Shown here: positions 8,587 through 12,990 of the stretch, piece by piece
How the letters are laid out: each line of letters begins with the position of its first letter
Position numbering within the stretch: the stretch's first letter is position 1
Assembly: GCF_902652985.1 (NCBI RefSeq)
Contig: NC_047022.1
Span: 30,659,465 to 30,723,464, forward strand
Direction of reading: 5' to 3'
DNA: 64,000 nt
Origin: Pecten maximus
Lineage: Eukaryota
Program-made: the position numbers and the translations under genes
The notes under the pieces: model-generated
Seen by the model: the letters and a program-made list of their open reading frames with translations, nothing else
The model's database searches: none
What the model was told of the DNA's origin: nothing

Positions 8587-8690
8587 TCATGTTACCTTGT
8601 AAGGAATCGTAGACGATTTCAGGGTTTGTATTGTAGAAGGTACTCCGCCTCGCAGACGCATTACCAGGAAGATAGGATTATTCTGCAGAT
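8587..8690 (-). CDS. Ubiquitin-like domain, C-terminal exon (..[16 protein letters not shown], then [18 protein letters not shown]-stop)
   Basis: The acceptor is ttttttccgcag|ATCTGCAG. It is in phase with exon 12418-12236 (G + AT = D). The peptide matches the ubiquitin C-terminus ..STLHLVLRLRGG. The 3' end is uncertain: there is an alternative donor AAG|gtaaca at ~8596. Confidence 0.6.
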
Positions 8691-9570
8691 CTGCGGAAAA
8701 AATATTATTCAGATGATAACCACACGTCACTGAGATACCGATGTAATAACCTATACAATTACATTCTTCCTGCTTAATTTTTTTTAATCTTTTATTTTTT
8801 GTTTTTTTTTTTAATTTTAAAGACATTTATGTAATTTATCACAAATTAATATAATCTTTTACCCTGGTTTGTGTGAGTCATGGAATCTAAAGTTATCCTA
8901 TATGAGGATTGCTGAGTATTGCAGCATAAGAATTTGTCCTGGGGGTAGAGATCTCCCCTACCTCACTCCAAAGGAAGTGTAAGATTAATAAACACTTGAA
9001 ATTCAAGTTGGCTGCATCCATAATCAATTATTAGGATTCATTACATATTCGCCTGTTTGTTCAAATCCTAGAAATTTAATGCATTTTCAGCTACTGTCAA
9101 ATTAACCTTCTTCCCTTTAAATACACAGTAACTGCAAAATGCCTATCCCGCTTATAATTTGTAAATGAAATGTTTCTTTATAATGCATTTCAAATCAAAT
9201 ATGAAGGCTGTGGAATTTGTTTGATGGAAAACATGGAGAATTGTCAATATACTGATGATTATAAAAAATTACTATTAATTATTGAATCAGTTGATGTTAA
9301 TCAATTATTTAACTAATTATATCCCAATATTCAAATACGTTCCACATTATGGATGTTACCGTACTTTGGGATATTTTGGATGTTGTTGTATTTTGGTTTA
9401 TTTGGCGCCTGGGGTGAATGAGCCAAAATTAAACACACCAAAATTTCACAAAAAAAAATTGTCAAAACAATATCCGGATTATAGCAACCGTCTTTCCGTT
9501 CATTAACTACATACCCATTACTAGCTTCCGCGACCTGTGTTGATGTGTGTTGGAATATTGTTTTTTGATA

Positions 9571-10510
9571 ACAATAGGTCCAGAGAGCCTGTATCGCTCA
9601 CCTGGTTTCGCATGAAACAAGAATGATGCTTAAGAATATTTGTCGCTAGTAATGCTATGTCAATATCATAAGCATCTCATATGGGTACAATCACATGTAC
9701 ATTGGTTTTATTGTAATTCTAAAAATGTGAGGTTTTTATGCCAAAAGGTGCATTAATCCATGAAATGAAATCGACTTTTGGCGCAACCCCATATAGATGC
9801 TACCATACAAATGTGAGTGATATCCATTGCTTAGTTTTAGAAAAGAAGTTGTTTAAACCAATTGACTCCTTTTGACCCTGCCCTCTGCCCCTGGGGGTCA
9901 GCTCCTTCCTTTATACAATTTTGAATCCCTACCCCAAAAGGATGCTACCTGTCAAATATGTGAGATATCCATTGCTTAGTAGCAAAGAAGAAGTCATTTA
10001 TATCAATTCTGCCAAAATGACCCCTTTTGGCCCCACCCCTCAGCCCCCAGGGGGTCATCCCTGTCATTTGTACAATTTTGAATCCCTACTCGAAGGGGAT
10101 GCTACCAGTCAAATATGAGAGATATTGATTGCTTAGTTTCAAAGAAGAAGTCATTTATATCAATTCTGCCAAATTGACCCCTTTTGGCCCCACCCCTCAG
10201 CCCCCAGGGGGTCATCCCTGTCATTTGTATAATTTTGAATCCCTACTCCAAGGGGATGCTCACTATCAAATATGAGCAATATCCATTGCTTGGTTTCAGA
10301 GGAGAAGTTATTTAATATATCAATTTAGCCAAATTGACCCCTTTTGGCCCAGCCCCTCAGACCCCCGGGGGGTCAGCCCAACCATTTGTACAATTTGAGT
10401 CCCCATCCCACAGGGATGCTTCTGACCAAATTTGGTCAAATTCTGATCTGTGGTTATGAAGAAGAAGACAATTGTTGATGGACGGACGGCCGACCAGGTG
10501 AGCTAAAAAC
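9571..10510 (+). mobile_element. HINE/pearl-like element, subfamily A
   Basis: The head is ..ggtccagagagcctgtatcgctcacctgg. The body is ~4.5 units of ~150 bp (..ttgaccccttttggccccacccctcagcccccagggggtca..). The tail is gttgatggacggacggccgaccaggtgagctaaaaacg. Confidence 0.6.
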
Positions 10511-11319
10511 GCGTCAATAAAGGTATGTTTTCATCTAAATGTGTCATAAAATTCATTCACATTGTTTTCATATTGATTGTTTTATTAGCTGTGTTCAAGG
10601 ACAAGTCGCATCTTGATCGATCGATTCACTTGTGTACAAAGGGAAGACTGTTTTCCTGTGCAACCAGGTGAGACGAAATACAAAAGACTTTCATAGCGTA
10701 ATGAACAAACATATCAATTACATAACTACTGGTAAGTGCCCAAATTTAACACACCGATATTTAACCACCCTATTTTGAGCAAAAAACGCCAAAATATCCC
10801 AAAGTACAGTAGTAGTGAATCACCAACAGAACCAGGATAGAATCCAATGTACTTAATATATAATCCTCCTGGACCCAGTTTTATCAACGTTCCTTATCTT
10901 ACAAATGTAACCCTTTCATCCCTAGTGACCATATTGGACTTCAAATTATGAATGAGTGGCACAGTCCATTAAGTTTCTTAGGGTTGAAAGGGTTAAGGAA
11001 ATCCCTGAACTTGAAATTTTCCATAAGAAAGCATTATTGGAATAAGGAAGAATCTTAATAGTTAAAGGGTCTTTACTTAAACGCTGCAATGCTTTCCAAT
11101 GGGAAATTTCCTTAAGTTAAGGAATAATGATGAAACTAGACTGTAGAGGTCTGGTACTCTGTAATAATGCTATAATTAATTATGGCTTGAATAAATTAGA
11201 CTCCAGATTTGTTAAATGAACTAGATTACTGAAATGTCAGCGAGGGGCCCGCAATGTGCCATTTTCTATACCTGAACTTAACCAAAGTCATACACTGACA
11301 TAGAATTATTACTTATATG

Positions 11320-12110
11320 CTGCAAATATACAAATTACACTATGACCTTGACCTTAACATTAGCAACTTTTTAAATTCCTATTGCACATCTGTATATCAA
11401 AGAGCATTACCATGCATGTGATATCTGGAATATTTTGCATTGTTTAAGGATTTTGTATGATGTACTTGAAAGCACATTCCTGTTATATTTTCAGTAACAG
11501 TGACCTTGACCTTGACCTTAAGGACATTTTAAACCAATAATGTGCATCAGCATTTCCTAGCGTATTATCATGTTGAGTTTGAACTTCTGTATAGGGCCTT
11601 AGATGATAATTTTTGACAACATATTTTGGGTTGTGGTTTAAGTTACATTTAGCTTAGGTTTTTAAACCCCTTTTGCACGTCAGTATAACACCAAGATTAC
11701 ATTTCAATGAAAAACAGCACAAAAAAACATTTAAGTCGAATGTCTGGATGGCCAGTCAGACTAACAGATTACTGGCAAACCTGAAGTACCCTAACCCTAT
11801 CCCTCTGACATAGAAGCCAACAAAACACATAATAACTAATACACTTTTGACAGTAGAATATGGAGCTAAAACCTGTGAACACTTGACTGCTAGCTAAAAT
11901 AAGTGTGACATTGACATTAATTTTCAAAGCTGAAAAGCAATTGCAAGCAAGCACTTTTAAATTAAGAAAGAAGCATTGGATGAAGTATCAGTTTGATTGG
12001 CAAAAGCAAACTCAAGTTATTGCATGGAAACTGATTCTCTACATTTAGCAACAGTGACCTTGACCTTTGACACAGAAAAGCAAGCCCAAGCAAGCACTTT
12101 CAATAAGAAA
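11320..12110. repeat. ~190-bp dispersed/tandem repeat x3 containing (tgacct)n-like cagtgaccttgaccttgacc motifs
   Basis: Related units lie at 11330-11520, 11520-11700 and 11950-12100. The motif also occurs at 34305. Confidence 0.4.
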
Positions 12111-12235
12111 GCACTGTATGAAGTTTGAGTTCTATTGCCCCAAGGAAGCTTTTCCACCGAAATAAAAAGTGCTGACTGACAGACACAGTGATTACTATAG
12201 GACACCTGCACTTGTAGAGAGAAATATAAATTTAC

Positions 12236-12418
12236 CAAGATCTGATACAGTAACCTCATTCTTCAATGGAAAGCGGTCATGAATCAACCTCTGTTGGTCT
12301 TGGACAATTCCTTCTATCTTGTAGATTTTGTCCTTTAAATCAGCCACAGTATCCGTACTAGACACCGTCACACAAACAGTCTTACCAGTAAGTGTTTTTA
12401 CTTCGATTGTCGACAAGA
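12236..12418 (-). CDS. Ubiquitin-like domain, N-terminal exon ([60 protein letters not shown])
   Basis: The peptide has the beta-grasp ubiquitin pattern (cf. [58 protein letters not shown]). The acceptor is tttttctcattccag|TC and the donor is G|gtaaat (phase 1). Confidence 0.7.
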
Positions 12419-12902
12419 CTGGAATGAGAAAAACAGATTTTTTATGAGAATTGCTTAAATATAAAAGGACATCACTTCGGTTACATATACATCCGAGTAC
12501 CATTATATAATAGATGTTTGACAATTTTATTGGATTGGATTTCAAAAGTGGCTCCAAAATATCAATCAATAGAGTGCAGCATACAAACTAGGTATACAAT
12601 ATAAATTTTACCAATCTCTTTCAATCAGAATATATCATATGTTGAACAATATCTTCAAAAAAATGGATTTGACTTTGCATATTCAAAAGTATTTTTTTTG
12701 TTACATAATGCCACCTCATTTGAATGTTATACATTATTGTTTCAAGGTTTTTTTATTACTTTTATTACACACAGCAGACCCTAATTATATTTCTTTTTTT
12801 TTCACCTGGCTGATTGAATATCTGTCAAAAAAATGAGAAACAAATTTTGAAAATCCATGCTACAGCCACCTAATTTCTTATTGTTTCAGTAAAAAAACTT
12901 AC

Positions 12903-12990
12903 TAGGGAAACTTTTACGGAACTCTGTCAACACATTTTGGCTGATATCATCCTTGGAATAGGTGAAGAATTTTTCGACTGCTTCCATGAC
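12903..12990 (-). CDS. Linker exon [29 protein letters not shown], in phase between the last PARP4-like exon and the ubiquitin-like exons
   Basis: The acceptor is tgtttttgaag|GTC and the donor is A|gtaagt (phase 1). Joining to 12418 gives A + TC = Ile. Confidence 0.4.

Follow-up and report, generated by a model that had tools for sequence, protein, structure and literature searches.

The 64,000-nucleotide stretch of the Pecten maximus genome analyzed here (RefSeq assembly GCF_902652985.1, contig NC_047022.1, positions 30,659,465 to 30,723,464 of the forward strand; hereafter, the window, with its first letter as position 1) carries on its minus strand a gene related to that for PARP4, the vault-type ADP-ribosyltransferase. 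The last exon of this gene with demonstrable PARP4 homology is followed by five candidate exons, designated A to E (Table 1), of which exons C and D encode a ubiquitin-like (Ubl) domain and exon E is a ∼4-kb low-complexity coding exon. The initial annotation of this locus presented the Ubl domain as apparently spliced in phase onto the 3′ end of the PARP4-like gene and forming the C terminus of its product or, alternatively, as a separate small Ubl gene. The analysis described below indicates that the Ubl domain is a diverged relative of ubiquitin that probably lies inside a longer reading frame. The explanation that is favored here, albeit with reservations, is a ubiquitin-fusion gene, in which the Ubl domain ends in Gly-Gly and is followed by a long tail encoded by exon E.

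Candidate exons A to D were spliced computationally on the minus strand, within the region from 8000 to 15000. The AG/GT sites and the phases (0/0, 1+2, and 1+2) previously proposed for exons B, C, and D were all recovered, and the spliced translation was the same as the one quoted at that time. In a comparison with the Pfam database, the joined exons C and D matched the ubiquitin family (PF00240) with a score of 56 bits (E = 3.5e-15, against a cutoff of 25.4), covering profile positions 1 to 68 of 72 (residues 83 to 150 of the test construct). The best PDB matches found by phmmer were to ubiquitin itself, with residues 3 to 76 aligned and a single one-residue deletion, and global alignment of the Ubl domain with ubiquitin gave 36 identical residues out of 76 (47%). 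The two exons thus encode a complete ubiquitin-family domain, as had been claimed. Conserved residues include K6, L8, K11, K27, K29, R42, I44, V70, R72, L73, R74, G75, and G76; the changes include K33I, K48F, Q49P, K63N, H68F, and L71M. The features expected of a conjugatable modifier, namely, the Leu8-Ile44-Val70 patch, Arg72, and the C-terminal RLRGG, are all present. The domain lacks the near-invariant 76-residue sequence of ubiquitin proper and its chain-forming K48 and K63 residues. The C terminus of the domain reads V-M-R-L-R-G-G, so that, owing to the replacement of Leu71 by Met, it is MRLRGG and not the LRLRGG originally reported; RLRGG is retained. As reported, Gly-Gly is followed by further residues (Val-Pro-Ser..., from VPSTIQ..), which are encoded within exon D.

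The position equivalent to Met1 of ubiquitin is occupied by Ser, and at least 30 residues precede it. The absence of Met at this position, together with the strong acceptor site, identifies exon C as an internal exon. The coding sequence of the domain contains no stop codon or frameshift and is interrupted by a 3.5-kb intron, so it is neither a retrocopy nor a processed copy of ubiquitin. A scan of the window found no other ubiquitin-like coding pieces. Judging from these alignments, the Ubl domain is a genuine, if diverged, ubiquitin paralog and a new member of the ubiquitin family, and its 47% identity to ubiquitin suggests that it would adopt the β-grasp fold. The intron that splits the domain also harbors a 157-bp tandem repeat (3.5 copies, positions 9860 to 10467).

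Position 8587, previously taken as the end of the Ubl-encoding region, is the last nucleotide of the read-through stop codon TGA (8589-8587, following ..PYKVT), which is located 3 codons beyond a usable GT donor at 8595. Exon D therefore need not be terminal. The acceptor site of exon E at 7616, tatatttttcag/GGC (in a longer form, tcaaaatctatatttttcag/GGC; slashes here and in Table 1 mark exon boundaries), is strong, lies ∼980 nt downstream of exon D, and keeps the phase-0 frame. The 970 nt between 8587 and 7617 contain no AATAAA or ATTAAA hexamers, compared to ∼1.65 expected from the strand-wide frequency of 1.7 per kb. Directly upstream of exon E, the observed/expected (o/e) ratio of CpG dinucleotides is 0.07 to 0.09, so there is no promoter-like (unmethylated) signature at that point; both poly(A) hexamers and CpG ratios are weak proxies. 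The sole in-frame ATG upstream of exon E, at 7676, is in a poor context (cctATGt), with pyrimidines at -3 and +4. On these sequence features, splicing of exon D to exon E, which would join the Ubl domain to the tail, appears quite probable. The Ubl domain, then, is probably found inside a longer reading frame and not at its end, contrary to the initial annotation; the small Ubl gene suggested as an alternative is probably incomplete for the same reason, as exon D would run on into exon E.

Exon E surpasses in size all other coding features in this part of the window; between 7706 and 3606, frames of 185, 904, and 603 codons are free of stops. The GC content of exon E, 0.41 to 0.49, exceeds that of the surroundings (∼0.35), and its repeats have periods of 21, 24, 36, and 87 nt, all of which are multiples of 3. 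The long 904- and 603-codon frames, the raised GC content, and the repeat periods all make exon E look like a coding sequence. The encoded, intrinsically disordered tail of ∼1,300 residues is a composite of low-complexity segments (Table 1) that resemble the tails of histones H3 and H4, the C-terminal domain (CTD) of RNA polymerase II (Pol II), and FG, RGG, and RS repeats. Nearly all top PDB matches of the H3-like motif were to H3 peptides (residues ∼12 to 32), each of them individually weak (E ∼ 0.2) because the motif is short. The H4-like motif includes an 11-mer identical to H4 residues 7 to 17. The CTD-like heptads repeat with a 21-nt period and a 96% match. Exon E has no Pfam histone match, and its resemblance to histones is confined to tail-like motifs of 13 to 17 residues; likewise, no RPB1 domains were detected on it with Pfam, and the CTD-like block is a motif look-alike only. 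No Pfam family matched the tail extension. The last 13 nt of the exon E open reading frame (ORF), including the stop codon, fall in a dispersed repeat; a GT at 3736 would provide an alternative exon end. Copies of this repeat family are found at 3546-3619, 2885-2938, 2728-2781, 2960-3034, and 2778-2852, and one of them supplies the end of the ORF.

As assembled, exon E contains two apparent frame breaks (Table 1). Units of the PLQWEQQQ type are encoded on both sides of the first break and GGRGGPGV units on both sides of the second one, and the two shifts jointly restore the frame in which exon E starts. Because each break falls within a tandem repeat and is bordered on both sides by the same peptide unit, and because the 904- and 603-codon frames next to them are uninterrupted, these indels are likely to be assembly or polishing errors or allelic length variants, rather than signs of long-standing decay, although they may also represent a null allele. 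Mini-introns that would rescue the frame were considered and rejected: the polyQ site has no GT, and the RGG site has only implausibly short GT..AG pairs.

Table 1. Candidate exons, motif blocks, and signals of the PARP4-like and Ubl-tail region (window coordinates)
Feature	Position	Strand	Description
Last exon with demonstrable PARP4 homology	16844..16951	-	NEKVMEGPSIDELVAEETVDILDYVGWQNPDVFDEK; strong phase-0 donor AAG/gtaagt
Exon A	14591-14445	-	Acceptor gatctag/G, donor AAG/gtgacg, phase 0 at both ends; EPVEIV...TNYDLREK; exon 28 of the initial annotation
AATAAA	14219..14224	-	173 nt past the stop reached by reading through exon A; may be a PARP4 poly(A) signal
Exon B	12990-12903	-	Acceptor tttttgaag/G, donor CTA/gtaagt, phase 1
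Exon C	12418-12236	-	Acceptor cattccag/T (strong), donor TTG/gtaaat, phase 1; equivalent to ubiquitin residues 1-58, ...TVSDL
Exon D	8690-8596	-	Acceptor ttccgcag/A, donor AAG/gtaaca, phase 0; equivalent to ubiquitin residues 59-76, plus 16 residues
Exon E	3606..7616	-	∼4-kb low-complexity coding exon, in frame from exon D; stop at 3606
Linker	7616-7551	-	Start of exon E
PolyQ	∼7550-7200	-	Four PLQWEQQQ-type units
Apparent +1 frameshift	7446..7469	-	Extra A in CAACAACAAAACAAC, within the polyQ repeat
Acidic repeats	7107-7060 and 6969-6922	-	Two copies, CK2-like
H3 tail look-alike	7032-6982	-	17 residues, compare H3 16-30, PRKQLATKAARKSAPA; after the first acidic repeat
H4 tail look-alike	6867-6817	-	17 residues; after the second acidic repeat
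PolyE	6810-6658	-	
Pol II CTD-like block	6486-6271	-	YSPTSPS heptads, four of them perfect, with degenerate ones on either side
FG-type repeats	6180-5680	-	GFxFGxS...LQTxxNDVPTxG units
RGG/GAR array	5245-4761	-	24-nt period, ∼20 copies
Apparent 2-nt insertion	5044..5064	-	AGAGAG instead of AGAG, inside the 24-nt RGG array
RS (Arg/Ser) domain	4625-4191	-	36-nt period, ∼12 copies
K/E-rich end	to 3606	-	
AATAAA	3471..3476	-	130 nt past the stop of exon E; likely the 3′ end of the transcription unit

Database searches with 630 residues of exon E against 1.84 billion representative sequences, performed with HMMER, returned 783 matches, the best one with E = 5.7e-39 and the best ones having 54 to 72% identity. 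Every listed best-scoring stretch overlaps the CTD-heptad segment; the matched sequences include proteins of RPB1 length, near their C termini, and other heptad-array proteins. No ortholog of exon E as a whole was found among these representatives, only such CTD-heptad matches, and the exact products of the two long exon E ORFs are not on record. A query extending from exon A to the start of exon E retrieved only generic ubiquitins and polyubiquitins. Ubiquitin domains with extensions on both sides, including those after RLRGG, are found in other eukaryotes (proteins P0036, P0038, P0041, and P0042), so an internal ubiquitin domain is not unprecedented. Long CTD-like arrays were also seen in many non-RPB1 proteins, where they are found amid unrelated domains (P0118, P0124, P0178, P0234, and P0259); by eye, these neighboring domains appear RRM-like, BTB-like, or TPR-like.

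The exons of the upstream gene match the Pfam families PF00644 (PARP), PF08487 (VIT), and PF13768 (VWA_3), and it is matched by PARP4, VIT, and vWA relatives from Ciona, Phallusia, and Ridgeia and from a contig in ENA. The upstream gene shares the PARP catalytic, VIT, and vWA segments with human PARP4, the vault PARP (Q9UKK3; PDB entries 11jf, 9bw6, and 9bw7), as well as a 90-residue stretch past the vWA domain: exons 18391-18311, 17780-17679, and 16951-16844 align with residues 1123 to 1213 of the human protein (E = 6e-23). Because the last of these exons ends in a strong phase-0 donor, the gene must continue for at least one more exon, and exon A, which fits in phase, is on sequence grounds the obvious candidate. 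Homology to PARP4 ends at 16844 (∼residue 1213 of the human protein), and exons A and B showed no match to human PARP4 at E ≤ 10. A BLASTP comparison of exons A and B with a PARP4 fragment from gecko (P0106) gave nothing significant beyond the known PARP4 exon, and a tblastn search of the 8- to 17-kb region with the C-terminal (MVP-interaction) region of that fragment produced noise, save for the same known exon. Thus, in comparisons with the human and gecko proteins, this PARP4-like gene has no detectable MVP-interaction domain. A likeness of exons A and B to the C-terminal domain of vertebrate PARP4 that was seen by eye (F.QLE...S.L and EAV.K) found no support in BLASTP, tblastn, or phmmer and was discarded. 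In the ENA contig ERZ25070786 ctg134702l (L001; protein P0080), a single ORF of 339 codons spans the PARP4-like vWA region without interruption; 400 nt of the contig follow this ORF, and the source of the locus could be an intron-poor relative or a retrocopy.

In the ubiquitin-fusion gene favored here, exon D would be spliced in phase 0 to a terminal exon E, placing an extension protein after Ubl-Gly-Gly. The sequence upstream of the Ubl domain would be either a 30-residue leader, translated from the ATG in exon B of a separate gene immediately downstream of PARP4, or the PARP4-like protein, joined through exons A and B. Such a layout resembles those of UBA52 (Ub-eL40), RPS27A (Ub-eS31), and FAU (FUBI-eS30), where ubiquitin or a Ubl ending in Gly-Gly likewise continues directly, in frame, into a polypeptide that is unrelated to it and for the most part basic or disordered. 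The products of these three genes are rapidly cleaved by deubiquitinases (DUBs) after Gly-Gly if the next residue is not Pro, and the ubiquitin moiety of fusion genes aids the production of its basic, disordered partner. At this locus, the residue after Gly-Gly is Val, and because it is not Pro, hydrolysis by ubiquitin C-terminal hydrolases or USPs can be expected. Such cleavage would release the disordered tail, for which the Ubl domain may serve as a co-translational solubility or processing module. Recognition of the domain by DUBs is plausible because L8, R42, I44, V70, and R72-G76 are kept but uncertain because of the 50% divergence from ubiquitin, which includes H68F and L71M. The differences from the known fusion genes are considerable. 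Their extensions are ribosomal proteins of 52 to 80 residues, and here it would be a low-complexity protein of ∼1,300 residues; their ubiquitin (or Ubl) starts at Met1, and here no fewer than 30 residues, and possibly the whole PARP4-like protein, come before it. Further, this Ubl domain, which has neither K48 nor K63, shares only 47% identity with ubiquitin, and both its splicing and its cleavage are predicted.

The released tail could function in the nucleus as a mimic, as a multivalent scaffold, or as a decoy for the enzymes and readers of its motifs. A nuclear scaffold or decoy appears the most plausible of its possible roles, given the look-alikes of H3 residues 16 to 30, H4 residues 7 to 17, the CTD, and the FG, RGG, and RS repeats. 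Histone-tail mimicry is known from such nonhistone proteins as influenza virus NS1 (ARSK), G9a (ARKT), and JARID2 and EZHIP (K27-like motifs), and the tail resembles these mimics in that its short motifs copy the K18-S28 stretch of H3 and the K8-K16 stretch of H4. Consensus CTD heptads outside RPB1 are found not only in this tail but also in the proteins P0118, P0124, and P0178. To our knowledge, no protein described so far unites H3-like, H4-like, CTD, FG, RGG, and RS segments in one chain behind a Ubl domain, and neither the literature search nor the HMMER search with exon E revealed one.

Upstream of the Ubl domain, the sequence is compatible with two roles for exon B, which would be either a linker spliced to exon A or the exon in which the coding sequence of a separate gene begins. 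If exons A and B are joined, the locus would be a single gene running from the PARP4-like exons through A, B, and the Ubl domain into the tail and encoding a polyprotein of ∼2,700 residues. Cleavage after Gly-Gly would convert it into a PARP4 with a C-terminal Ubl-Gly-Gly and a freed tail, so that the Ubl-tail portion is common to this gene model and the preferred one. The splice itself would be in order: the phase is 0/0, the frame is open, introns of about the length of the 1.45-kb gap are typical of this gene, and the exon B acceptor, with 13 pyrimidines out of 20, is on par with the validated PARP4 acceptors (12 to 15 out of 20). An in-frame TGA and a cluster of out-of-frame ATGs just upstream of exon B would be harmless in an intron and awkward in a 5′ untranslated region. 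As already mentioned, the PARP4 homology stops at an exon that needs a further one, and the lack of a recognizable MVP-interaction domain makes the C terminus of this PARP4 noncanonical in any case. Finally, CpG depletion is unbroken from ∼57 kb to ∼5 kb (o/e, 0.1 to 0.5), compared to an o/e of ∼1.0 at 58 to 64 kb, with local exceptions at 32 to 34, 37 to 40, 50 to 52, and 13.4 to 13.8 kb. Gene bodies of invertebrates carry methylation, which is the basis for reading CpG depletion as a transcription unit, and the pattern observed here would fit a single long transcribed region methylated in the germ line. The opposing evidence starts with the fact that a phase match is expected by chance in ∼1 case out of 3, and exon A has several phase-0 GTs. 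The AAG acceptor of exon B is the only one of the 8 acceptors at this locus with the disfavored A at -3, and the second codon of exon B is an in-frame ATG (12987-12985, gtcATGg) with G at both -3 and +4. Unspliced, exon A reads on for 18 codons to a stop at 14397, past which there is an AATAAA, although a hexamer there is at background frequency for this strand. The patch of high CpG (o/e, 0.93) at 13401 to 13800 could be a promoter, even though it overlaps an 89-bp tandem repeat (13457-13655, 2.2 copies) between exons A and B. Rfam and tRNA scans for intronic small nucleolar RNAs, which could have served as intron markers, found nothing.

Comparative data likewise speak, if weakly, against the single gene. 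As the initial annotation had stated for the human protein, human PARP4 has no ubiquitin domain; none was detected with PF00240 in the retrieved PARP4 relatives (fragments from gecko, fishes, ascidians, and an annelid) either, and the 10 kb downstream of the PARP4-like locus of the annelid Ridgeia showed no Ubl. A query covering the region from vWA to exon A retrieved only 4 PARP4-like fragments, none of them molluscan, and a query that combined the conserved PARP4 exons with A, B, and the Ubl domain retrieved PARP4 fragments (P0102 and P0106 to P0108) and ubiquitins but no protein combining both; this comparative test is weak because the databases contain no molluscan PARP4 and no transcript-derived proteins from this or closely related species. 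In a 2010 survey of the PARP family (PMC2964712), UBCc, UIM, and U-box domains are listed, whereas no Ubl is given for the vPARP clade, and, beyond this survey, nothing relevant was found in the literature on a PARP4-Ubl protein or on a composite histone/CTD/FG/RGG protein. Since exons A and B match nothing and PARP4 homology ends at 16844, what ties the Ubl domain to PARP4 is phase compatibility. That compatibility is the part of the original proposal of splicing onto PARP4 that held up; the AAG acceptor and the exon B ATG tell against the rest. Judging from these splice signals, the joining of the Ubl domain to PARP4 through exons A and B is possible but somewhat doubtful, the polyprotein gene as a whole is rather unlikely, and a single transcript for the PARP4-like ADP-ribosyltransferase, an internal processable Ubl, and the ∼1,300-residue tail of look-alike motifs is a little less likely still. 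The exact layout of the initial annotation, in which the Ubl forms the C terminus of PARP4, ends at 8587, and leaves the low-complexity exon to another gene, has in its favor the compatible phases from A to D, the stop codon 3 codons after the exon D donor, and the ATG-initiated ORF (MSKNISNV..., from 7676) that could begin an independent tail gene. Every point against the A-to-B junction counts against it too, however, as do the lack of a poly(A) hexamer past the stop, the CpG-depleted sequence upstream of exon E, the strong in-frame acceptor of that exon, and the poor placement of the ATG at 7676, all of which make it the least probable of the explanations considered. A precursor of a stand-alone modifier made from exons B, C, and D (∼126 residues, with the Ubl between a 30-residue leader and a C-terminal propeptide of 18 residues, whose removal would expose Gly-Gly) and unrelated to its neighbors would make use of the well-placed ATG of exon B and, with exon D unspliced, would end in RLRGG, a short peptide, and a stop, much like the precursors of NEDD8, SUMO, and ISG15, which have di-Gly followed by a short peptide. 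Its R72 and RLRGG tail are of the ubiquitin/ISG15 type, and R72 and the retained hydrophobic patch are compatible with recognition by E1 and DUBs. Those precursors, however, lack a long N-terminal leader, which is unusual for Ubl modifiers; exon D as a terminal exon would have no poly(A) signal and would face competition from a good donor-acceptor pair, the better-supported reading being that it runs into the large exon instead of stopping after 18 residues; and the databases searched yielded no small Ubl related to it. Such a gene appears improbable. About equally improbable is a decaying locus, made up of exon-shuffling remnants or a young lineage-specific gene disabled by frameshifts, in which splice compatibility would have no present function. 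The two frame breaks in the assembled exon E, the repeat-derived end of its ORF with the stop codon, and the finding of only generic ubiquitin and CTD-heptad homologs would fit this picture. Weighing against it are the otherwise intact 904- and 603-codon frames, the Ubl sequence free of stops and frameshifts, the eight splice signals, all of them intact, and the nature of the breaks, which are small indels in tandem repeats, hot spots of assembly error and length polymorphism, that jointly restore the frame. The ubiquitin-fusion gene, with Ubl-Gly-Gly followed by the tail from a ∼4-kb terminal exon, is thus considered the best explanation and a moderately likely one. Several observations speak against it: about half of the ubiquitin surface is altered (H68F, L71M, Q49P); a 30-residue leader and Ser in place of Met1 are not seen in classical ubiquitin-fusion genes; the end of exon D could just as well be the TGA 3 codons beyond its donor; as assembled, the D-to-E frame stops at 7152, after ∼155 residues, and the remainder of exon E is reached only if the two indels are errors or allelic; and no orthologs of the Ubl flanks or the tail were found among 5.8 billion clustered proteins, nor were any transcripts found.

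If exons D and E are indeed spliced together, the gene would probably be laid out like a ubiquitin-fusion gene but carry a cargo without precedent, namely, a disordered protein of very large size in place of a small ribosomal one. Its tail would copy those stretches of H3, H4, and the Pol II CTD that are modified most heavily and carry them beside FG, RGG, and RS repeats, which would make it a candidate multivalent sponge or scaffold for the enzymes of chromatin, transcription, and splicing, as well as a case in nature where ubiquitin assists the production of a protein prone to aggregation. Were the Ubl also an appendage of PARP4, the domain combination would be new: a Ubl would then be found for the first time on a vault-type PARP, bringing ADP-ribosylation and ubiquitin-type chemistry together in one polypeptide. 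Cleavage of such a polyprotein would yield a vault-type PARP ending in a free Ubl-Gly-Gly, perhaps conjugatable or ADP-ribosylatable at its C terminus, and a tail that serves as decoy or substrate; without cleavage, the PARP would stay linked to a series of model nuclear substrates. In both cases, the domain combination and the logic of the gene would be new for any PARP. If neither splice is used, the locus would be an ordinary one, with a diverged ubiquitin paralog located beside PARP4.

Several other features of the window were noted on the minus strand. An ORF of 252 to 257 residues at 731-1501 has a weak match to DDE_Tnp_4 (PIF/Harbinger-type transposase; E = 0.004, below the Pfam cutoff). 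An AT-rich intron of the PARP4-like gene with a CpG o/e of >1 contains, at 36576-38181, ∼3 tandem copies of a ∼723-bp unit with identical 94-residue ORFs. Long intronic tandem arrays with a strong GC skew (∼0.35) are found at 40000-43000 and 50000-53800 and give rise to spurious repeat ORFs (ILVQVNLPYNIHEV... and IPSCILRNPQLYPHKSPVVSSE...).

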